From: Gemmatimonadaceae bacterium | GTDB taxonomy: Bacteria > Gemmatimonadota > Gemmatimonadetes > Gemmatimonadales > Gemmatimonadaceae | NCBI GenBank assembly: GCA_031366985.1 | Contig: JANLPE010000073.1 | Location: 57,701-121,700, forward strand | DNA length: 64,000 bases | Direction of reading: 5' to 3' | Part shown: positions 3,540 to 15,825 of the stretch, piece after piece | Layout of the letters: every line of letters starts with the position of its first letter | Numbering within the stretch: position 1 is the first letter of the stretch | Program-made: the position numbers and the translations under genes | The notes under the pieces: generated by a model | Told to the model about the DNA's origin: nothing | Database searches by the model: none | Seen by the model: the letters and a program-made list of their open reading frames with translations, nothing else

Positions 3540-4886
3540 ATGCGCGCACTCGTTCTGAACGGAGCGCTCGGGCCCGACCCACTGGTCGATGAGCTGACGG
3601 CGCGAATCGCGCGGGACCTCGAGGCGTACGACGACGCCTCGGTGGATATCGAAGTGCTGCGCGACGCGCACGTCGCGCACTGCCAGGGCTGCTTCGACTG
3701 TTGGACGAAGACACCCGGCATCTGCAAGATCAACGACGCCGGGCGGGATCTGGCGCGTGACTTTGTCGCGAGCGATGTGGTCGTACTCGTGACGCCCGTG
3801 CAATTCGGCGGCTACTCGTCCGAGTGCAAAAAGATGCTCGATCGCACGCTCGGCATGCTGCTGCCGTTCTTCCGGCGTATCGACGGTGAAGTGCATCACG
3901 CGCCGCGATATGCGCATCCGCCGGCGTTTGGCGTCGTCGGTGTGGTCGACCGACGCAATGCGGCATTGGAGCAGACGCTGCGCGCTCTGGTGACACGCAA
4001 CGCCATCAACTTCGCGGCGCCGGCGCACGCGGTCGGGATCGTCGAGCGCGCGAACGCCGCACACCCGGCGTTCGGCGAGTGTGATACGGTCATCGCGACG
4101 CTCTGCGGTGCACGATCGAACGAGCACGTACCGATCGTCGATGTAGACTCACTGCTACCCGCGATGCCGCTATCCGGCGCGGGCGCCGCACCAACCGACG
4201 TGCTCTTACTCATCGGGAGCGCCAAACCGCGCGGCACGAGCACGTCCGAGGCGCTCGGCATGCATCTGCTCGAGCGACTGGCGCTGCGCGGTGTGATCGG
4301 CGAGTTGCGCCATCTACAAAAGGAGGCGCATTCGCCCGAGGCGTTGCGCGATCTCGTGGCCGCCGTGCGTGCGCACAGCCTGGTGATCATCTCCTCGCCG
4401 GTGTACATCGACGCACTGCCCGCGCTGGTCACGCGCGCGCTCGAGGCGATCGCCGCCGACCGCGCCCAGGATCTGGTGCGGACACCACTCACGATCGCGA
4501 TGCTGCTCAACTGCGGCTTCCCGGAGTCGCGTCATGCCGCCGTCGCCCGCACGATCGGCGCGCTCTTCGCGCGTGCCACCGGTGCACGGTGGGCGGGCGC
4601 GCTGCAACTGGGCGGTGGTGGTGTGATCGATGGACGGCCCTTCGATGTCACGGGAAAGGTCGTCGCGCATCTGCCGGCGTTGCTTGATGAAGCCGCGGCC
4701 GCGCTAGCCGTCGGCCGCGCGATTCCGCCGTCGGTGCAGGAACGCTTTGCGCAACCGCTCATGGGTACGTCGCTGTACATGGCGGCCGGCGACGCGGGCT
4801 GGCTCTGGACCGCGGCGCACGAAGGCGCACTGACCAAGATGTGGCAACGTCCCGTCAATGCTGAGGGGACGTTGGCGGCCGGTTAG
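3540..4886 (+). CDS. Tandem flavodoxin-fold protein: iron-sulfur flavoprotein (Isf)-like domain + NAD(P)H-dependent FMN reductase-like domain
   Basis: N-domain CQGCFDCWTKTPGIC (Cx2Cx2Cx7C) and TPVQFGGYSSECKKMLDR; second domain LIGSAKPRGTSTS, SPVYIDALP, LNCGFPE. Confidence 0.8.
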   Translation: MRALVLNGALGPDPLVDELTARIARDLEAYDDASVDIEVLRDAHVAHCQGCFDCWTKTPGICKINDAGRDLARDFVASDVVVLVTPVQFGGYSSECKKMLDRTLGMLLPFFRRIDGEVHHAPRYAHPPAFGVVGVVDRRNAALEQTLRALVTRNAINFAAPAHAVGIVERANAAHPAFGECDTVIATLCGARSNEHVPIVDVDSLLPAMPLSGAGAAPTDVLLLIGSAKPRGTSTSEALGMHLLERLALRGVIGELRHLQKEAHSPEALRDLVAAVRAHSLVIISSPVYIDALPALVTRALEAIAADRAQDLVRTPLTIAMLLNCGFPESRHAAVARTIGALFARATGARWAGALQLGGGGVIDGRPFDVTGKVVAHLPALLDEAAAALAVGRAIPPSVQERFAQPLMGTSLYMAAGDAGWLWTAAHEGALTKMWQRPVNAEGTLAAG

Positions 4887-4919: not shown

Positions 4920-7121
4920 TTAGATGAACGCCGCCGCACGCGTCAGCAGTTCGTCCAGCCCTGGCTCCTTCAGATTGCGCGGCTTGCCAGGGTGAATGAT
5001 CGAGACTTGGCAACTCTCGGCCGCGTCGACGAGCTGCGCGTAGGTGCCGGCGTTGAGGTCGGCGATGTACGCCTGCTTATTCGCGTTATACGCGAACATC
5101 CTGTTGTTAAGCTGCGTGCACTCATTACAGGTCGAGCAACGCGCGGTCTCGATGTACGCCTCGTCGGATGTGCGCTCGGGCGCGACATCCGGGACGTCTC
5201 TCGTGGCAGCGGACGCGGCCGGCGGCATCCCCGCCGTAGTCGACGACGATGTGTCGGCGCGCGCCGAGTCGAGGGTCGTCTCCGCCTGCGTGCGCGCCTC
5301 CCACGCCTTGCGCTCGCGCGCCAGCAACTGTTCTGCATGGGAGTTATGCACGCCACCCAGCTCCTGCAGGCTGTGCCACATCTCGCGGCAGCGACGGGCC
5401 TCGCGCAGCAGGCGCTCGTCGACGAGCACGCGCTGAAGCGCGTCCTTGTCATCGACCATCAGCAGGGCGGGTACCCGATCCGGCAGCCCCTTCCTTTTGC
5501 AGGTGAGCGCCAGATCAACCGGGATCATGGTGCCGTTCCATCGCGGGCGCGGCACGCGTGCCAGGTGCTTCGCGTAGCGGTGGTCGCTCGCCACGAAGTC
5601 TACGTACGTGAAGGCGACGTCTTCGACGACGCGCTGCGACTGCAGATCCGCGTACTCGACGTGCTGAATCGGCCAGTCGAGCTCCACTTGCGCGTTCGCA
5701 TCGAGACTGAAGCGCGACGCCCAATTCGCACCCGCCGACGGGTCGTAGCTGAAGGCGGGAAAGGCGCGCGACTCCATCGCGGCGGCCGACACCAGGTACG
5801 GTGGCAATCCCGACGATGCACCAGACGCGCCGGAGAAGACGCTGAACAGCGCCGTGCCCCGATACGATAAACCGCGCACGATCTGATCGCGGAATCGATA
5901 CAGATTCGAGCTGCTGGACTGCAACACGTACACCTCGTTGAGTCCCATCGCCATGCTGGCGATCTGTCGGATTCGCATCCCTACGCTCAGGTTTCCCGCG
6001 CTGCTCGGCGCCTCTTCGAGAATGTCGTCGATCTGCAACATGACCTTGATCGGCAGTCCCGACGTCAGCAGTTCCATCAGCTGCGCGTGCTCGTCGGCGT
6101 GCAACAGCGCAGCGTTGATGCAGACGAGGTAGTCTGGGAATGGAGCGAGCTCATGCGGGTCGAGTCCATTGGCTCCGAACAGCGCGAACATCGCATCATG
6201 CTTGTCCTCGCGGTATTGCCCCTCGATCTCGAGTTCTGCGACGGCGATCGCTCCGGCCAGCGCGATCTGCGCTGCGCTCCGCTCGTGATAGGCGCGCAGC
6301 GCGTCCGCGCACGAGGTGAATACGAATGGATAGGGTGTCGTGCCAGCGTCCTTCGTGTTCGATGCGTAAAATCGTTGTGACTGCAGCGCCGCAATCAGCT
6401 GCGTAAGTCGTTGTCGTCGCGCCTCGGGAAGCCGATCTTGCGGCAGGGCGGTCGTCAGCAGTAACGACAACGCGCCGAAGTCGAACGCGCTGCCGAAGCC
6501 CACGCCGACGGATGCTTGGAGATGAGCGGCACTGCGGCCCTCGAGCGAGCGCTCGTGATCGGCGCGAAGGATATTCGAGAGACCCAACAACAGTGTGTCG
6601 ATCGCGGCGCGAAATGCCGCGCCCTTGTCCTCTTGCACGCGCTGCCACGTATGCAACAGCAGTCGCGACGGGAGCTGGAAGTCGCAATCGACGAGGTCGC
6701 CGTTCAAGGCGATTGCCGTGCGTATCCGGGCGGCGCTCGCCATGAAGGCGTCGTCCGCCGTTGGTAAGAGATGCGTGATGGCGAGGTCCCAGAGCGTCGA
6801 GAACGATCCCGTCGCGCCCCCCACGACCAGCGTACGTATCGTCTGCTCGACACGTAGCATCTGCTTTCGCATCCGTTCGCCGTCCGTGCCGAGCGCCGCG
6901 GCGGTCAGCGCGTCATCGATCACGCTCGAAAGCGAGCGCACAAAGGGTGCCGCGCCGTTCGTCGTGAGCACGAGCGGAAAATCGTACCGCAACGCGGAGA
7001 GATCGCGATACCTGGCAAACAGTGCCGGGCGCAGACCGACTCCTTCGACGCTGTCGAGACGATCGCTGGTGCGACGACCGGTCAGAAAGAAGACAACATG
7101 CTCATGGAGATCCGAGTTCAT
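4920..7121 (-). CDS. Large protein: degenerate PFOR beta(TPP)-domain-like region + C-terminal single-cluster ferredoxin
   Basis: ATG at 7121, 4 nt after the korB stop. LPIKVML / VYVLQSS / GLSYRGTALFSVF / AAAMESRAFPAFSYDP resembles the PFOR C-terminal domain. C-terminus CSTCNEC...ESCQVSIIHPG. Confidence 0.7.
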   Translation of the reverse strand: MNSDLHEHVVFFLTGRRTSDRLDSVEGVGLRPALFARYRDLSALRYDFPLVLTTNGAAPFVRSLSSVIDDALTAAALGTDGERMRKQMLRVEQTIRTLVVGGATGSFSTLWDLAITHLLPTADDAFMASAARIRTAIALNGDLVDCDFQLPSRLLLHTWQRVQEDKGAAFRAAIDTLLLGLSNILRADHERSLEGRSAAHLQASVGVGFGSAFDFGALSLLLTTALPQDRLPEARRQRLTQLIAALQSQRFYASNTKDAGTTPYPFVFTSCADALRAYHERSAAQIALAGAIAVAELEIEGQYREDKHDAMFALFGANGLDPHELAPFPDYLVCINAALLHADEHAQLMELLTSGLPIKVMLQIDDILEEAPSSAGNLSVGMRIRQIASMAMGLNEVYVLQSSSSNLYRFRDQIVRGLSYRGTALFSVFSGASGASSGLPPYLVSAAAMESRAFPAFSYDPSAGANWASRFSLDANAQVELDWPIQHVEYADLQSQRVVEDVAFTYVDFVASDHRYAKHLARVPRPRWNGTMIPVDLALTCKRKGLPDRVPALLMVDDKDALQRVLVDERLLREARRCREMWHSLQELGGVHNSHAEQLLARERKAWEARTQAETTLDSARADTSSSTTAGMPPAASAATRDVPDVAPERTSDEAYIETARCSTCNECTQLNNRMFAYNANKQAYIADLNAGTYAQLVDAAESCQVSIIHPGKPRNLKEPGLDELLTRAAAFI

Positions 7122-7125
7122 GTGT

Positions 7126-8136
7126 CTATCCGCCCACGCTACTGCCGGCCATCGCGACACGGTCGCCGTGTCCCTGCGGCCAGACGGTGAACTTGTCGAG
7201 TTCGGTATTCAATCCGATGCGCGTCTGGTCGATGGTGCGCAACACGGTCGAGCGGCGCAGATCCTCGTAGCACGGCACCTCGGCATTACGATAGAGGATG
7301 CCGACCGGGATCGCGTCATCGCCCGTCGCCAGTTCGCGGGCGCGATGGATGTTCGAGGGGTCGTGCTCGAGCTGGTTCGTGTAGATGCGCGAAAGACCGG
7401 CGCTATACGGTAGTCCGTCCGCGTGGTGCAGAAGCCGCACTTTCGTCGGGTCCTGCATGAACGGGTTCAATGAGTTCGGTAACCATTCCGGGCATCGTTG
7501 CACGATTCGCACGAATGACAATCCCTTGTGATGGTACGCGGCCGACACAACGTCGTAGAGCATCTCCGGTATCCAATCGACCGCTTGTGCGACGAACGAC
7601 ACGTTTTGCACGCCCAGTGTCACCGAGAGGGGATTGAGCGCCTCGAGATAGCTGCCGCGCGGTGTCGTGTTGCTCTTGGTGCCGATCGGTGACGTCGGCG
7701 ATGCCTGCTTCTTCGTCAGGCCGTAGATCTGATTGTCGTGCAGGAAGACGGTGATGTTCATGTTGTAGCGGAGCGCGTGAATCCAGTGCGCCGTACCGAT
7801 GCTGCAGCAGTCACCGTCTCCGGTGTTCACGAACACCGTCAGGTCTGGCCGCGCCATCTTGACGCCTTCGGCCACCGGCAGGGCTCGGCCATGAATGCCA
7901 TGAAATCCGTACGTCTTCATGTAATGCGGGAACCGGCTAGAACAGCCGATGCCTGACACGAACACCGTCTTTTCGGGGCGCAGTCCTTCATCCCGACACA
8001 GCCGCTGCACGGCGGCGAGGATCGCGTTGTCGCCGCATCCGGTGCACCATCGGGGGACACCACTCTGATAGTCCTCCAGCTGATGGTGCTCGTCGAACAT
8101 CTGCAACAGGCAGTGGGTCGCGGTCGCGGTGGTCAT
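7126..8136 (-). CDS. korB: 2-oxoacid:ferredoxin oxidoreductase beta subunit (TPP-binding)
   Basis: WCTGCG, SGIGCS, HGIHGR, GDGDCC, NQIYGLTK, SPT motifs. ATG at 8136 overlaps the alpha subunit TGA. Substrate not determinable from sequence. Confidence 0.92.
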   Translation of the reverse strand: MTTATATHCLLQMFDEHHQLEDYQSGVPRWCTGCGDNAILAAVQRLCRDEGLRPEKTVFVSGIGCSSRFPHYMKTYGFHGIHGRALPVAEGVKMARPDLTVFVNTGDGDCCSIGTAHWIHALRYNMNITVFLHDNQIYGLTKKQASPTSPIGTKSNTTPRGSYLEALNPLSVTLGVQNVSFVAQAVDWIPEMLYDVVSAAYHHKGLSFVRIVQRCPEWLPNSLNPFMQDPTKVRLLHHADGLPYSAGLSRIYTNQLEHDPSNIHRARELATGDDAIPVGILYRNAEVPCYEDLRRSTVLRTIDQTRIGLNTELDKFTVWPQGHGDRVAMAGSSVGG

Positions 8137-10070
8137 CAGCGGCTCTCCTGAGTCGACGCCGAACCCTGAAGCTTGTCCAGCAGCACGCGGCGAATGGTGC
8201 GTGGCTTGATCGGCTGACCGCGGACCTGACTCCAGCAATCCACATCGACGAGGTATCGTGAGCGCAGCAGGATCGCGACGGAGGAATATCGGCGATTCGA
8301 TTCGTCGATGATCGTGTCGTCCGGGCGATCGCTCCAATTGCTCTCGATCGTCATGACGTGCGTGAAGCCGCGCATAATCTCTTTGATGCCCGGCGGCAGC
8401 GGCTGCAGGAACTGCAAGTGCATCGATGAGACCTTGCGGCCGTCCTCACGCAGCAACGCGACGGCTTCCTCGATGGCGCCTTTCGTGCTGCCCCAGCCGA
8501 CCACGAGCAAGTCACCGGTTGGGTCGCCAAAGACGGGCGGCGGCGACAGCGTCTTCTGTAGCGCCGCGAGCTTGAGACTGCGAAAACGCAGCGTCTGCTC
8601 GTTGATGTCCGGATCGTACGCCACGTGGCTATCGCGGTCGTGCGCGAGGCCGGTCAGTGTGTGCATGCCGCCCGGCTGCCCAGGGATGAAGCGTCGCGCC
8701 AGACCCGTGGTCTCATCCCAGTCGTAGGGCTTGGCACCCGGCGGGACGGCGCTCTGGTCGATAGGAGGCGCGACCCATGAATCATTGAAGTTCGGCCGTG
8801 GGAACGGTTGCTGCGACGTGGCGAGGGACGCATCCGACAGCACGATGACCACCATGTTGAACGTCTCGGCGATCTTGCGCGCGGTGATGATCGAGTAAAA
8901 ACATTCTTCAATCGTGCCCGGCGCCATCACGACTTTCGGTGCATCACCATGGCTACCGAAGATGGCGGTCATGAGATCACCCTGTTCCATCTTCGTCGGC
9001 TGGCCCGTGCTCGGACCACCGCGCTGCACGTTCACCACGACGAGCGGGATTTCGGCCATTACCGCGAGGCCGATGGCTTCCTGTTTGAGCGAGAAGCCCG
9101 GGCCCGATGTGATGGTGATCGTGCACTTGCTGGCATACGACGCACCGATGGCGAAGGCGCAGGCGGCGATTTCGTCTTCGGCCTGGTGGACGATCCCGCC
9201 GACGTTCTCGAATACCTCGGAGAGGTAATGCGACGCCGACGTGGCCGGTGTGATCGGATACATCGCGCACACTTCCATGCCGGAGGCGAGCACACCGAGC
9301 GCAAGCGATGTGTTGCCGTTGACGACGATCTGCGGAACTGTCGATCGCGTCGCGGGAATTACGTATGAGAAGTCGAGATTCGACTTGGCCCACGCATGCC
9401 CAGCGTCGAGCAGTTGGATGTTGGCATCGACGATGCGTTGATCCTTCTTGCCGAAGGTCGTGATGATCTGGCCGCGTGCGAGCCCGAGATCCAGGCTGTA
9501 GAGCTGACAGAGCATGCCAAGCGCAAACATGTTCTTACCTTTACGCACATCGGCGACGTGCGTCCGGCACTCCCGTTCCATCGGCACTTCGTACACGCGA
9601 TAGCCCGCATCGACAAGCCGGTCGTGTGTTTCGATGTATGACGCGACGACCGACGTGTCAGGATGTGTGCGCCACATGTCCTCGAGCAAAATGATGCAAT
9701 CCGCTTTGAGCTCCTTCGCGCGAACACGTCCGAGCAGCACCTGTTCGTTGAACGCGATGACCAGATCCGTCTCGTCGCCACCGTTGGAGATCGGCCCCGC
9801 GCCGATGCGGATGCGATTCCCGCTTGCGCCGGCCACGCTGCGCGCCGGCGGGCGGATCTCGGCGGGAATGATTTCTGTCGTCCACACCCCGTTACCCATC
9901 TGCGCCGCGATCGTACCCAATGATTGCCCGCACTTCTGCGCCCCCTCGCCGGAATCGCTGATGATCTCGACGATATGTTCTTCGAGCCGGATTGGCACGT
10001 TTCGCGGGCCCAGCGCCTGCGTGTCGTTCACGAGATCGTCAACCGCTCGCTGTGTAATCACGTCAGTCAT
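8136..10070 (-). CDS. korA: 2-oxoacid:ferredoxin oxidoreductase alpha subunit (fused gamma-alpha)
   Basis: DSGEGAQ gamma domain, YPITPA, QAEDEIAA, TSGPGFSLKQE, QRGGPSTG. ATG at 10070 overlaps the nfnB stop (ATGA). Confidence 0.93.
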   Translation of the reverse strand: MTDVITQRAVDDLVNDTQALGPRNVPIRLEEHIVEIISDSGEGAQKCGQSLGTIAAQMGNGVWTTEIIPAEIRPPARSVAGASGNRIRIGAGPISNGGDETDLVIAFNEQVLLGRVRAKELKADCIILLEDMWRTHPDTSVVASYIETHDRLVDAGYRVYEVPMERECRTHVADVRKGKNMFALGMLCQLYSLDLGLARGQIITTFGKKDQRIVDANIQLLDAGHAWAKSNLDFSYVIPATRSTVPQIVVNGNTSLALGVLASGMEVCAMYPITPATSASHYLSEVFENVGGIVHQAEDEIAACAFAIGASYASKCTITITSGPGFSLKQEAIGLAVMAEIPLVVVNVQRGGPSTGQPTKMEQGDLMTAIFGSHGDAPKVVMAPGTIEECFYSIITARKIAETFNMVVIVLSDASLATSQQPFPRPNFNDSWVAPPIDQSAVPPGAKPYDWDETTGLARRFIPGQPGGMHTLTGLAHDRDSHVAYDPDINEQTLRFRSLKLAALQKTLSPPPVFGDPTGDLLVVGWGSTKGAIEEAVALLREDGRKVSSMHLQFLQPLPPGIKEIMRGFTHVMTIESNWSDRPDDTIIDESNRRYSSVAILLRSRYLVDVDCWSQVRGQPIKPRTIRRVLLDKLQGSASTQESR

Positions 10071-11608
10071 GGTCGTTCCAAGCCGCTGGTGAGATCGCGT
10101 CGGTTGCTCACGTGCACGCGCGCGAAGTTCCGTTCTTTGATGTCGATGCCGAAGAGTGTGTCGCTGTCGGCCGCGCGATCGGGCGCGTACGGTAGCCACG
10201 GATCGCGGATGCCGAGATATGCTTTCATGCCACGCGCGGCCTTGCGCCCTGCACCCATCGCCTCGATCACCGTCGCGGCGCCGGTCACGATGTCACCACC
10301 AGCGAAGACGCCGGCGACCGACGTAGCGCACTGCTCGTAGGTATTGATATATCCGCGCGCGTTGAGCGTCAGCTTGGACGTCTGGCCCATGATCGGGTTC
10401 GCATTCGTGCCGATCGCGTATACGACCACGTCCGCCTCGAACTCGAACTCACTGCCCGCGACCGGTACCGGGCGGCGACGTCCCGACCCATCCGGTTCGC
10501 TGAGTTCCATGCGCACGCAGCGTATGCCGCGCACGCTACCATGGCCGTCATCGAGCACCGCCACGGGCGCCGTGAGGAAGTGAAATGCGACGCCTTCCTG
10601 TTCGGCATGGTGCAATTCTTCCATGCGGGCCGGTGCTTCGGTGCGCGAACGCCGATAGAGGCAATACACCTTCTCGGCACCGATCCTGACGGCAACGCGC
10701 ATCGCGTCCATCGCGGTGTTCCCCGCGCCGACAACAGCAACGTGTTTGCCGATCGGCATTGGCGTGTCGAAGTCCGGATATTCACGCGCGCGCATCAGGT
10801 TGCAGCGCGTCAGCAGTTCGTTGGCGGACAGCACGCCGTTGAGCGAATCGCCGGGAATGTTGAGCATCGTCGGATAGCCCGCGCCCACGCCGACAAAGAC
10901 CGCGTCGAAGCCCATCTCCTCGATCATCTGTTCGATCGTGAAGAGACGGCCGACCAACGTGTTGCATTCGAACTTCACACCGAACGATTTGAGCTTCTCG
11001 ATCTCCGCGTCGATGACCGCGTTGGGCAGACGGAAATCCGGGATGCCATAACGGAGTACGCCGCCCGGCAGATGGAACGCTTCGTACACGGTGACATCGC
11101 ACCCCGCCTTTGCCATGTCCGCCGCGCAGGCCATACCGGCCGGGCCGGAGCCGACGACTCCAACCTTGAATTGATTCGGCTCGATGTACGGGATGTTGAT
11201 CCAATGCTCCGTGATCGCACTGTCACCGACAAAGCGCTCGAGACGCCCAATTGCCACGGCCTGCAGCGTGTCACCGACCGTACACACGCCTTCGCACTGC
11301 GTCTCCTGTGGACAGACGCGTCCGCAGATCGAGGGCAGCACGTTGGTGTCCGTGATGACGTCGTAGGCGCCTCGGACGTTCTTCTCGGAGAGTCTCTGAA
11401 TGAACGCGGGAATGTTGATGCCGACCGGACAGCCGGAGATGCACGGCTGGTCCGGGCACATCAGGCAGCGCTCCGCCTCGCGCATCGCTTCTTCTAGGCT
11501 ATAGCCTCGCGCTACTTCATCGAAGTTGTGTGAACGCACGCCTGGATCCTGCTCGCGCATCGGCGTGCGTTCCTGTGGAATCGCGCGAATTGTCTTCTTC
11601 TTCGCCAT
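10067..11608 (-). CDS. nfnB: NfnB/SudA-like flavoprotein (NADPH-dependent glutamate synthase small-chain homolog; two Fe-S clusters, FAD)
   Basis: CLMCPDQPCISGCP, CGRVCPQETQCEGVC, GSGPAG, LRYGIPDFRL, GAGNTAMD, AGGDIVTGAATV. Lies directly downstream of an NfnA-like gene; no gltB nearby. Confidence 0.88.
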   Translation of the reverse strand: MAKKKTIRAIPQERTPMREQDPGVRSHNFDEVARGYSLEEAMREAERCLMCPDQPCISGCPVGINIPAFIQRLSEKNVRGAYDVITDTNVLPSICGRVCPQETQCEGVCTVGDTLQAVAIGRLERFVGDSAITEHWINIPYIEPNQFKVGVVGSGPAGMACAADMAKAGCDVTVYEAFHLPGGVLRYGIPDFRLPNAVIDAEIEKLKSFGVKFECNTLVGRLFTIEQMIEEMGFDAVFVGVGAGYPTMLNIPGDSLNGVLSANELLTRCNLMRAREYPDFDTPMPIGKHVAVVGAGNTAMDAMRVAVRIGAEKVYCLYRRSRTEAPARMEELHHAEQEGVAFHFLTAPVAVLDDGHGSVRGIRCVRMELSEPDGSGRRRPVPVAGSEFEFEADVVVYAIGTNANPIMGQTSKLTLNARGYINTYEQCATSVAGVFAGGDIVTGAATVIEAMGAGRKAARGMKAYLGIRDPWLPYAPDRAADSDTLFGIDIKERNFARVHVSNRRDLTSGLERP

Positions 11609-11611
11609 CGC

Positions 11612-12559
11612 TTAGCCCCCGAGCGTCATTTCCGAGAAGTCCGGCCAATCGAGCAACTCGATTTGTGGTGCGGCAGCGAGCGCGAGTTCATGCAGCGCGC
11701 TCGGTCCAACGGTCTTCGTCATGCGGCAGCTTTCCGAAAACTTCTCGGCGGCGGTTGTTTCCGTCTGCGTATAGCGCTGGAGGCGCAGCATGAGGTCGTC
11801 GAAGTCGACCAGATGTCCATCGAAATCGGGGCCATCGACGCAGCCGAACTTCACCTGACCGCCCACCTTCACCCGGCAGCCACCGCACATGCCTGTGCCG
11901 TCCACCATGATCGGATTGACGCTGACCATCGTCTTGATGCCGTAGGGTCGCGTGGCATCGGCGCTGGCTTTCATCATGATCGGCGGTCCGATCGCGATGA
12001 CTTCGTCGATGTCGGTGTGCGTCTCGAGCGCGACGCGGATGCCGTCGGTGATCATCCCTTTCATGCCTGCCGAGCCGTCATTGGTGCAGAGGATCAGCTC
12101 GTCGCAGCAGGCGCGGAATTTGTCTTCCCAGAAGACCAGATCTTTGTTGCGGAAGCCGAGCACGGCGATGACGTAGGCGCCCTGTTCCTTGAAGCCGCGC
12201 GCTTGCGGAAAGATCGGCGCGACGCCCAGCCCGCCGCCGACGCACACGACCTTCTTGGCGTGACTGACTGCGCTGGGAATGCCCATCGGGCCCACCATCG
12301 CGTACAGCGACGTGCCGACCTGACACTCGACCTGCATCTGCTTGGTCGTCTTGCCAACCGCTTGGATGACCAGCGAGATCGTGCCGCGCTCGCGATTATA
12401 GTCTGCGATCGTGAGTGGCGTGCGCTCGCCGTGCTCGTGCAGCATGACAATGACGAATTGTCCGGGCTTGGCGGCCATCGCCATCAACGGATGGCGCACC
12501 TCGAGGAGGAACGTGACGTCCGAGAAGTCTTCCCGGGCAACGATCTCGAAGTTTGGCAT
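11612..12559 (-). CDS. nfnA: NfnA/SudB-like FAD/NAD-binding subunit with [2Fe-2S] (PyrK-like)
   Basis: PGQFVIV, ERTPLTIAD, VGPMG, VGGGLG, MVDGTGMCGGCRV...CVDGPDFD (Asp + 3 Cys ligands). GGAAGG RBS before ATG 12559. Confidence 0.9.
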   Translation of the reverse strand: MPNFEIVAREDFSDVTFLLEVRHPLMAMAAKPGQFVIVMLHEHGERTPLTIADYNRERGTISLVIQAVGKTTKQMQVECQVGTSLYAMVGPMGIPSAVSHAKKVVCVGGGLGVAPIFPQARGFKEQGAYVIAVLGFRNKDLVFWEDKFRACCDELILCTNDGSAGMKGMITDGIRVALETHTDIDEVIAIGPPIMMKASADATRPYGIKTMVSVNPIMVDGTGMCGGCRVKVGGQVKFGCVDGPDFDGHLVDFDDLMLRLQRYTQTETTAAEKFSESCRMTKTVGPSALHELALAAAPQIELLDWPDFSEMTLGG

Positions 12560-12795
12560 GACAGTCACCTTCCGGGGGGGGCGGTTGGAGGACTGGGGCG
12601 ATGGTTGGTGCGGCGAGTACTGGAGTCCTAGCTAGTGATATGCGATTGCCACGGGCGTAGGGGATTCCTTGCCCTCATGTCGGATTTACCAAGCTCCGTG
12701 GTCAGATGCCTCGCGCCGGGCCTGCCTTCATCCGATAATTCCCACCCGATACTCGTTTTTCTCGCCTTGCCACGATCATAGGGGAAACTTCAGCG

Positions 12796-14336: not shown

Positions 14337-14534
14337 ATGAATCGTTCTGTTGCTGCATTGCTGTCCGCCGTCGCGATCTTGACCGCCTGCAGCGATCCGC
14401 CAACGGCTGTGCCCAGTCTGACTGCGCGTGCCGATCGCGAGCAGTCGACGCCGGTCGGCTTCCTCACATCGCAACCGGCGACATCATCCCAGGCACAACA
14501 GCAGCGTGGATGCCGACAGAGGTCGTGTCAATAG
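14337..14534 (+). pseudogene. Truncated lipoprotein N-terminus interrupted by IS sequence
   Basis: MNRSVAALLSAVAILTAC lipobox. The frame ends inside an IS-end-like sequence. Confidence 0.5.
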
Positions 14535-14544
14535 GTGTGTAAAT
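14519..14544. mobile_element. IS256-family-like terminal inverted repeat (isolated)
   Basis: GAGGTCGTGTCAATAGGTGTGTAAAT; its reverse complement ATTTACACACCTATTGACACGACCTC resembles the TTACACA..TTGACAC ends I recall for IS256 elements. No partner end or transposase seen. Confidence 0.35.
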
Positions 14545-15521
14545 AGGTTTCAAGCGGCGACACGTTTTCGGTGGCAGAAGCAGGCGCTCGAGCATCTGAC
14601 GGCCGCGCTGCAAGACGGCCGCACCCAGCGTGTGGAGTCCCAATCCGTCAGCGCCGATCGCGCCCGCATCGCCGTGCTCGAAGCGACGATCGCGAAGAAG
14701 GATCGCGTCATTGCGGAAGTGTCCGAAGAGTACCTCGACATGAAAAAAGTATGGGGGCCCATGACCCCGCACTGGGTCCCGCCCGATCGCCGCAACGAGG
14801 TCGTGGACTGCGTCACGTCGCTCAGCACGCGCACCGCGGTGCAGACACCACACGGCCCGGTGCCCCGCGATCACTGGCGCACGCGCGCGGAACGCGACGG
14901 CATTCTGCGCGTTCACGAAAGGCATCCCATGGACGGCTATCGTCGCCTGACCTACCTGTTGCTGGACGCGGGTGACGTCGCAGTCAGTCCCACCTCCGGG
15001 TATCGCGTGCTCAAGGACGCGGGACGTCTGGATCGCTGGACGCGCACGCCATCGAAAAAGGGCACGGGCTTCGACCAGCCGACGCAGGCGCACCAACACT
15101 GGCACATCGATTTCACGTACCTCAACATCGCGGGGACGTGCTCCTATCGGTGCGCCATTCTCAACGGCTGGTCGCGCTACCTCGTGCACTGGGAACTCCG
15201 CGAGTCGATGACGACGCAGGACGTCACGACGATTTTGCAGCGGGCCCGGGAGAAGTTTCCCGACGCGTGCCCGCGCATGATTTCGGATAACGGCCCGCAG
15301 TTTATCGCCGCCTGCACAGTGCGATCGGCTACATCACGCCCGCTGACCCGCTCGCCGGACGGTCCGACGCCATTTGGGCGACCCGCGAGGCGCGCCTCGA
15401 AGCGGCGAGGGGCGCCCGGCGTCTCGCGCATCATCCGATCGCCGCGGAACATCACGTATTGCCCGTCCCGTTATTCCATTGTCCATCCACCCACGTGTCA
15501 CATTCACGCTGAACCAGGACA
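14545..15521 (+). mobile_element. IS3-family element remnant (orfA 3' part + internally deleted orfB, right end retained)
   Basis: OrfA-like IAKKDRVIAEVSEEYL, A6G slippery site at 14743-14749, OrfB-like GYRRLTYLLLD, WHIDFTYL, SRYLVHWEL, SDNGPQFIA. Then a jump in another frame to RLHSAIGYITPAD. Ends ...TCACGCTGAACCAGGACA (terminal CA at 15521). Confidence 0.9.
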
Positions 15522-15825
15522 GCCCATCTGTCGTTCAATTGCGCCACCGCCTGCAACGGCAACTGCACCCGCGTGGGCGCGCGCATCATCGTGCGCCGCA
15601 CCTGATTGAGTTCCAGTGCGCGATACAAATGGTAGATGCGCTTGTGGTTCCACCGATGCCCGAGCTTGCGCAGGCAATTGCGATACTTCCAGAAACTCAG
15701 CGTCCCTCCTGCGCGATCATGACGTCAAGGCCGCGATGATTGGCGCATCGACGTCGTCCATCACGTTCAGAGGCCGATATTACGCGGTGTGCGTGCGCGG
15801 GACTGAAGCGACCTGCATGTGAGCC
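15522..15825 (-). mobile_element. Second IS3-family (IS407-group-like) orfB fragment
   Basis: Minus strand: YRPLNVMDDVDAPIIAALT, then FWKYRNCLRKLGHRWNHKRIYHLYRALELNQVRR...QLPLQAVAQLNDRWA, cut by the right end of the first element. Confidence 0.8.

Follow-up and report, generated by a model that had tools for sequence, protein, structure and literature searches.

A stretch of 64,000 nucleotides from a Gemmatimonadaceae bacterium (contig JANLPE010000073.1), referred to below as the window, carries on its minus strand genes for a KorAB-type 2-oxoacid:ferredoxin oxidoreductase (OFOR) and for an Nfn-like flavoprotein pair, followed at positions 4920–7121 by an open reading frame (ORF) encoding a 733-aa protein, which is designated X here (stop codon at 4920–4922). 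KorAB-type enzymes are common in aerobic and facultative bacteria, where it is often unclear which acceptor takes their electrons and what they do alongside the normal 2-oxoglutarate dehydrogenase. The question raised by this locus is what protein X is and what part it might play beside such an enzyme. Members of the X family are annotated in the source records as "hypothetical protein" or "ferredoxin", the body of about 650 residues is covered by neither Pfam nor NCBIfam models, and literature searches yielded no description of X. Among the publications on Kor, a preprint on BCRII treats 2-oxoglutarate:ferredoxin oxidoreductase (KGOR) as a reagent only, and a paper on Thiomargarita gives three "korAB" locus tags without comment. 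The translated ORF, its homologues and an AlphaFold2 model point to a pseudo-enzyme related to pyruvate:ferredoxin oxidoreductase (PFOR) and carrying a tethered ferredoxin.

Relationship of X to pyruvate:ferredoxin oxidoreductases

Scans of X against Pfam and NCBIfam gave nothing beyond a borderline match to Fer4_13, with no match to Pfam TPP_enzyme_C, and a single-sequence phmmer search against the Protein Data Bank returned only Desulfovibrio africanus ferredoxin I. Since the relation to PFOR was not visible in family scans and single-sequence searches of this kind, profiles and structures were needed. With BLASTP, residues 393–523 of X were aligned with residues 1333–1458 of the 1578-aa PFOR of the same genome (E-value = 3 × 10−9), and hhalign, using an X family profile built from 55 sequences, gave a match to this PFOR over residues 135–606 (probability 97.9, E-value = 6 × 10−13). 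The family profile also matched residues 978–1118 of the Moorella thermoacetica PFOR (6cin_A) at X 353–479, that is, in domain VI, which binds thiamine pyrophosphate (TPP); this match was weak and in the correct register. The match was far stronger to a 1692-aa PFOR–ferredoxin fusion from another genome of the same family, designated L092 (X 133–733, probability 100, E-value = 5.5 × 10−72).

Comparison of the X profile with a profile of 20 long PFORs (19 PFOR–ferredoxin fusions and the 1578-aa PFOR mentioned above) paired X 11–733 with residues 746–1692 of the parent sequence over 695 aligned columns (E-value = 7 × 10−92). The N-terminus of X was significant on its own (X 10–120 with parent residues 745–867, probability 77.7, E-value = 1.9 × 10−5) and collinear with the full alignment. 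The AlphaFold2 model of X had a mean pLDDT (predicted local distance difference test) of 87.8 and a pTM (predicted template modelling score) of 0.77. In a Foldseek search with this model, the top 18 matches were all PFOR structures (6cin, 7plm, 2c3y and 1b0p first; E-values from 2 × 10−5 to 2 × 10−4, probability 1.0), followed by the beta subunit of oxalate oxidoreductase and OFOR beta subunits. Thus, X is a homologue, in both fold and sequence, of PFOR domain VI and of the pyrophosphate-binding domain of OFOR beta subunits. A preliminary description of this DNA, made from the sequence alone, had pointed to residues resembling the PFOR TPP domain and had proposed a profile and structure search against PFOR. 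The resemblance was borne out by BLASTP, hhalign, the profile–profile comparison and the PFOR-first Foldseek ranking; it had been drawn too narrowly, however, as X runs from the start of PFOR domain V to the C-terminus.

Domain structure of X and the fate of its cofactor sites

Profile–profile alignment assigns residues 1–132 (6726–7121) to a relic of PFOR domain V. Both CxxCxxCxxxCP motifs, by which an OFOR delta subunit is recognised, are missing from it: the first is gone through a 14-residue deletion at about residue 58 and the second through a deletion of about 110 residues near residues 124–132. Residues 133–325 (6147–6725) correspond, according to hhalign and column counts, to the helical front of domain VI. 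Here the CxxC of PFOR (DGACMGCGE) is replaced by NGDLVDCDF, and the third ligand of the proximal cluster (TGC) is deleted. The following residues 326–470 (5712–6146) form a pseudo pyrophosphate-binding core, delimited by hhalign, the 6cin_A profile match and Foldseek. Its sequence YLVCINAALL aligns with GGDG..DIG, so that GDG becomes N336-A337-A338 (6108–6116), in columns that are variable in the family. The N-motif, which follows GDG in the TPP/Mg signature GDG-X(25–30)-N and in PFOR reads LDTQVYSNTGGQ, aligns with Q363–S374, which reads QIDDILEEAPSS, and the fourth ligand of the proximal cluster (TPC) is replaced by G431-A432. Both replacements of the TPP motifs had been read in the preliminary description exactly as the hhalign alignments give them. 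Its statement that the Cys ligands of this domain are not evident also agrees with the alignment, in which the four proximal-cluster positions are L143, C146 (Cys in 47 of the 55 family sequences), a deletion and A432, leaving C146 as the one Cys among them. A relic Fe–S site formed by the semi-conserved body cysteines 146, 271 and 578 was considered and rejected, because these are lost independently of one another across the family and only one of them aligns with a PFOR ligand.

Residues 471–612 (5286–5711; hhalign and AlphaFold2) form a C-terminal extension common to the long PFORs, with an invariant W582, a motif LQELGG and, at its end, a long helix (594–625). It is followed by a disordered tether rich in Ala, Thr, Ser, Asp and Pro (residues 613–654, 5160–5285; AlphaFold2 pLDDT and family alignment), with pLDDT below 50 at residues 626–648, a length of 18 to 61 aa in the family and a mean identity of 21%. 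The last domain, residues 655–733 (4923–5159; Fer4_13, profile and Foldseek matches), is a predicted single-cluster [4Fe–4S] ferredoxin domain with a conserved C-terminal helix. Its ligands C662, C665, C668 and C704 are kept in 54–55 of the 55 sequences, and the Ser/Ala/Thr-rich linker leading to a CxxCxxC...C ferredoxin in the preliminary description was correctly recognised. Fer4_13 (PF13370) scored 24.0 bits on X 658–710 against a cut-off of 24.5, and other family members scored 30–34 bits. The domain matched D. africanus ferredoxin I both as a profile (E-value = 1 × 10−5 for 1dax) and in Foldseek (1fxr, TMt 0.78, root mean square deviation 1.7 Å). It should be noted that the ferredoxin domain with its helix is the most conserved part of the protein: the mean pairwise identity in the family is 65% over its fixed 78–79 residues and 33–40% in the body, and the linker is the least conserved.

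As judged from these alignments, X is shown to lack the TPP/Mg site, the proximal [4Fe–4S] site and both domain V clusters, and only the predicted ligands of the tail cluster are kept. Since the chain begins at the domain V equivalent, the pyrimidine-binding domain I is absent, together with domains II and III. X thus misses every feature by which a catalytic PFOR or OFOR is recognised and should not be filed as a PFOR or as an oxidoreductase subunit beta, whereas its last 79 residues have the ligands and the predicted fold of single-cluster Fer4_13 ferredoxins. The homodimeric PFORs of D. africanus (1B0P/2C3Y) and M. thermoacetica (6CIN, 7PLM) are the best structural matches of the X model; compared with them, X has no TPP motif, no Fe–S ligands in the body and no domains I–III, and it has an additional tethered ferredoxin that these PFORs lack. 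The ferredoxin domain itself resembles D. africanus ferredoxin I (1FXR, 1DAX) in sequence, fold and the CxxCxxC...C ligand pattern; the latter, however, is a free 64-aa protein, whereas in X it forms a C-terminal domain to which a conserved helix (722–732) has been added.

Parent fusions and the origin of X

In a survey of 200 other genomes of the same phylum (201 including that of the window), full-length X was found in none of the other 200. Thirty of them, however, contained ORFs of 1,650–2,010 aa whose C-terminal 100 residues were 46–62% identical to the ferredoxin domain of X and whose preceding part was 26–30% identical to X 290–626. The L092 fusion (L092:4634–9712) is an example of such a protein and contains POR_N, PFOR_II, POR, two Fer4, TPP_enzyme_C and Fer4_13 domains. 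In all 19 fusions analyzed, the motifs GGDGxxxDIG, D[TS]x[VIL]Y[SA]NTGGQ and GxGxCxGCGE are kept; both CxxCxxCxxxCP motifs of domain V were matched in 17 of them, and one motif in the remaining two. The profile alignment of X 11–733 with parent residues 746–1692, together with the significance of the N-terminus, indicates that X represents the whole back half of a fusion of this type. On this evidence X is a truncated and, by prediction, cofactor-less derivative of that back half, starting from domain V, in which the parent's four clusters and one TPP are reduced, by prediction, to the tail cluster.

The two types of protein share a collinear order of domain V, domain VI, extension, linker and Fer4_13 (X 11–733, with 26–30% identity, and 50–62% in the tail) and a korAB neighbourhood. 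In contrast to X, which is half as long, the fusions have domains I–III, two domain V clusters, a proximal cluster and TPP motifs. The gene context differs as well: X comes after nfnAB–korAB, and the fusions are flanked by an rnfB-like gene and rnfC. The L092 locus (G016:C2:150000–164000) has the gene order korA, korB, rnfB-like, PFOR–ferredoxin fusion, rnfC, and a second locus, L093, is arranged likewise. This arrangement suggests that the Rnf-adjacent fusions are OFORs hard-wired to an Rnf complex. The preliminary description stated that no characterised protein with the architecture of X was known. A precedent does exist in the motif-intact long PFORs (about 1,650–1,950 aa) of the same phylum, with the same linker and Fer4_13 tail; we know of no characterised member among these fusions. 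The architecture of a PFOR with its own ferredoxin is inherited from intact long PFORs, and X itself is a widespread, unnamed pseudo-enzyme subunit with a plausible role as an electron shuttle.

An intermediate between the two may be represented by the long X relative P0236 (1460 aa), which is collinear with the parent over nearly its entire length (E-value = 4 × 10−97) and lacks the body cluster and TPP motifs; the Pfam match of its N-terminal half is weak (PFOR_II below the cut-off, POR_N and POR none). A plausible evolutionary series would lead from a catalytic PFOR–ferredoxin fusion to a full-length pseudo-PFOR and then to a short X without domains I–III. Vertical inheritance of X within this phylum was considered and is unlikely, since of the 201 genomes sampled only that of the window has a full-length copy. 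At about 65% identity, the closest homologues with a taxonomic label come mostly from Betaproteobacteria such as Polaromonas and Sulfuritalea, and one comes from a Gemmatimonadaceae-labelled metagenome-assembled genome (MAG). In view of this distribution, the entire nfnAB–korAB–X operon (4920–12568) appears to have been acquired horizontally.

The 1578-aa PFOR of the same genome is encoded outside the window, about 32 kb upstream of its start (G000:C35:25879–30615; locus L003:1880–6616). It has intact GGDG..DIG, N-motif and CxxC sequences and no C-terminal ferredoxin tail. Its TIGR02176 score is 346 bits, far under the cut-off of 911, which places it in a divergent PFOR clade with large insertions.

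Operon context and the proposed electron shuttle

X is the fifth and last gene of a tightly packed or overlapping minus-strand set, nfnA–nfnB–korA–korB–X. The first gene (11612–12568) encodes an NfnA/SudB-type FAD/[2Fe–2S] protein (DHODB_Fe-S_bind, FAD_binding_6; NF004862, 373 bits, above the cut-off) and the second (10067–11608) an NfnB/SudA-type Fe–S flavoprotein (Fer4_20, Pyr_redox_2; TIGR01316, 569 bits, above the cut-off). They are followed by korA (8136–10070), encoding an OFOR alpha subunit of the gamma–alpha fusion type without a ferredoxin domain (POR, POR_N, PFOR_II; TIGR03710, 505 bits, above the cut-off), and korB (7126–8136), encoding an OFOR beta subunit whose TPP and Cys motifs are intact (TPP_enzyme_C and PFO_beta_C in Pfam; TIGR02177). 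In Pfam scans, no Fer4 domain was found in KorA or KorB, and no ferredoxin other than X is encoded in the operon. Simple sequence scans revealed no promoter-like site between the five genes and no terminator-like site on the minus strand between them, the single terminator-like site lying on the other strand.

The start of X is the ATG at 7121, 4 nt past the korB stop and just preceded by GGCGGA. An alternative GTG start at 7160 is possible; homologues begin at the Met of 7121 (MNSDL.../MEADT...). The longest ORFs of korB (7126–8337, TTG at 8337) and korA (8136–10199, GTG at 10199) run into the upstream genes, and the likely starts are the ATG at 8136 for korB, with a 1-nt overlap with the korA stop, and the ATG at 10070 for korA, in an ATGA overlap with the nfnB stop. 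These start/stop overlaps point to translational coupling along the operon.

One search returned more than 2,600 homologues of X, and an exhaustive search yielded 2,067 representative clusters (50% identity), for 849 of which the E-value was 1 × 10−30 or lower. X is carried by at least 461 species-level genomes, mostly of Betaproteobacteria (Rhodoferax, Ramlibacter, Propionivibrio, Sulfuritalea), as well as of Alpha- and Gammaproteobacteria, Acidobacteria, Chloroflexia and Gemmatimonadaceae-labelled MAGs. NfnA-like, NfnB-like, KorA and KorB genes were found directly upstream of X on the same strand in 49 of 49 loci with at least 5.6 kb of upstream sequence, and korB preceded X in all 79 loci with room for it. 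Across related loci, the Kor and Nfn proteins were about 73–78% identical to those of the window, and X about 56%. The distant members of the family (35–40% identity; 864–1460 aa) also stand directly after korAB (two of the three analyzed overlap korB), and two long forms (1,236 and 1,460 aa) have an RnfB-like Fe–S gene downstream and no nfnAB in front. Thus, KorAB is the constant partner and the second partner is clade-dependent.

Two-subunit KorAB-type OFORs contain one [4Fe–4S] cluster and no delta subunit or domain V, and they depend on a ferredoxin from outside; in NfnAB, two NADP+ are reduced at the expense of NADH and reduced ferredoxin. Taken together with the gene order, this makes it probable, in our estimation, that X is the operon's own ferredoxin, a non-catalytic scaffold whose tethered [4Fe–4S] domain takes electrons from KorB and delivers them to the Nfn-like module. 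The PFOR-like body would dock on KorAB, plausibly mimicking the domain VI contacts of the PFOR dimer, and would keep the ferredoxin domain near the lone KorB cluster, where single electrons would be accepted; the domain would then swing to the Fe–S clusters of the NfnB-like subunit. Together, all five proteins would constitute a 2-oxoacid:NAD(P)+ oxidoreductase with its own ferredoxin supply. Provided that the Nfn-like pair acts like characterised NfnAB, low-potential electrons from 2-oxoglutarate would drive NADH-to-NADPH transhydrogenation; the reverse direction may also occur. That the five proteins form one soluble machine in which free ferredoxin is unnecessary and the tethered domain travels between the KorB cluster and the ferredoxin site of NfnB, with flavin-based electron confurcation in the reaction 2-oxoglutarate + CoA + NADH + 2 NADP+ → succinyl-CoA + CO2 + NAD+ + 2 NADPH, is put forward more tentatively, as a possibility that we ourselves regard as doubtful. 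The preliminary description had already proposed a pseudo-enzyme scaffold tethering an electron carrier to KorAB and NfnAB. The lost body sites, the retained tail ligands and the conserved gene order speak for this proposal; the physical contact between the proteins is inferred from that gene order.

Several observations weigh against the shuttle. Among the 150 best cluster representatives, no natural fusion of X with KorB or NfnB was found, and the partner beyond KorAB varies in the wider family (Nfn-like or RnfB-like), so that the Nfn link belongs to this clade only. The same genome encodes a normal 2-oxoglutarate dehydrogenase E1, and the substrate of KorAB is assigned from sequence at the family level only. 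Finally, the body is conserved beyond what a mere anchor seems to need, with R45, E92, R235, R238, R452 and W582 invariant and H157, W159, H308, K359 and Q401 near-invariant, which could reflect a ligand site or another function.

The missing fusions and the clade-dependent downstream partner, Nfn-like here and RnfB-like beside the long forms, would both accord with X as a free, oversized ferredoxin, and not a fixed subunit, that takes electrons from KorAB and diffuses to several acceptors (Nfn-like, Rnf and others), its body serving for stabilisation or solubility. We hold this to be unlikely: korB adjoins X strictly, to the point of near-overlap, across distant clades, a conserved body of 650 residues is costly for a mobile carrier, and a flexible tether is sensible only with an anchored body. 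The invariant Arg residues at 45, 235, 238 and 452, the near-invariant His, Lys, Trp and Gln residues, and the conservation of K359 and D365/D366 in the former Mg/TPP loop would instead suit an active body whose remodelled pocket binds CoA, a nucleotide or a 2-oxoacid. It would work as a sensor, allosteric or redox, or house a new catalytic site, and electrons would enter or leave it through the ferredoxin. Such a function is rather improbable, as no family besides PFOR/OFOR was matched in sequence, profile and structure searches, and the most conserved part of X is the ferredoxin domain and not the pocket, where the GDG-equivalent columns are variable.

Most carriers belong to aerobic or facultative lineages (Comamonadaceae, Ramlibacter, Xanthobacteraceae, Gemmatimonadaceae-labelled MAGs), and in D. 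africanus PFOR a C-terminal extension serves oxygen protection. Both facts would accord with a part for X in the assembly, stabilisation or oxygen protection of KorAB, in which the ferredoxin senses redox state or drains stray electrons and the main electron path lies elsewhere. However, the operon would then be left without a carrier between two ferredoxin-dependent enzymes, and motif-intact PFORs beside rnfB and rnfC carry this tail too, with electron transfer as the simplest reading there; a protective role of this kind is therefore very unlikely in our view.

In its proposed role, the shuttle resembles the OFOR delta subunit or domain V (PorD, KorD, OorD; two [4Fe–4S] clusters), which relays electrons from the beta-subunit cluster outward. 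X differs in using an unrelated single-cluster Fer4_13 ferredoxin on a scaffold of about 650 aa, and its own domain V relic has no cluster motifs. A further comparison is offered by the three-subunit 2-oxoglutarate:NADP+ oxidoreductase KorABC of Azoarcus evansii, reportedly described by Ebenau-Jehle et al. in 2003. This is said to be a KorAB-type enzyme hard-wired to a flavoprotein, with NADP+ and not free ferredoxin as the acceptor; it reportedly contains one FAD subunit, of about 35 kDa, and lacks an X-like subunit of about 80 kDa.

If the shuttle is real, the acceptor missing for KorAB in a large clade (at least 461 species-level genomes, about 2,000 clusters) would be a conserved, dedicated pseudo-enzyme subunit that bears the ferredoxin, and X would clearly exemplify the reuse of a TPP enzyme as a scaffold for a swinging Fe–S domain. 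It might also provide a new hard-wired link from the tricarboxylic acid cycle to NADPH via an Nfn-type bifurcating module. Were the five-protein machine to exist, hundreds of soil and freshwater bacteria, most of them aerobic or facultative, would possess a class of hard-wired enzyme not described before. A description of the X family would in addition improve the annotation of thousands of genomes.

On the other side of X, a gene at 3540–4886 of the plus strand adjoins it, so that the two genes converge. It encodes a 448-aa protein with tandem FMN_red/flavodoxin-like (Isf-like) domains, the first half of which contains a CxxCxxC...C motif. This gene was considered as a partner of X and rejected, since none of the 82 related loci has it next to the operon; its presence here is probably a local matter. 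On the nfnA side of the operon, about 2 kb away, the plus strand carries a remnant of an IS3-family transposase (14428–15609), an ORF in which an rve integrase core is combined with an HTH_21 domain.

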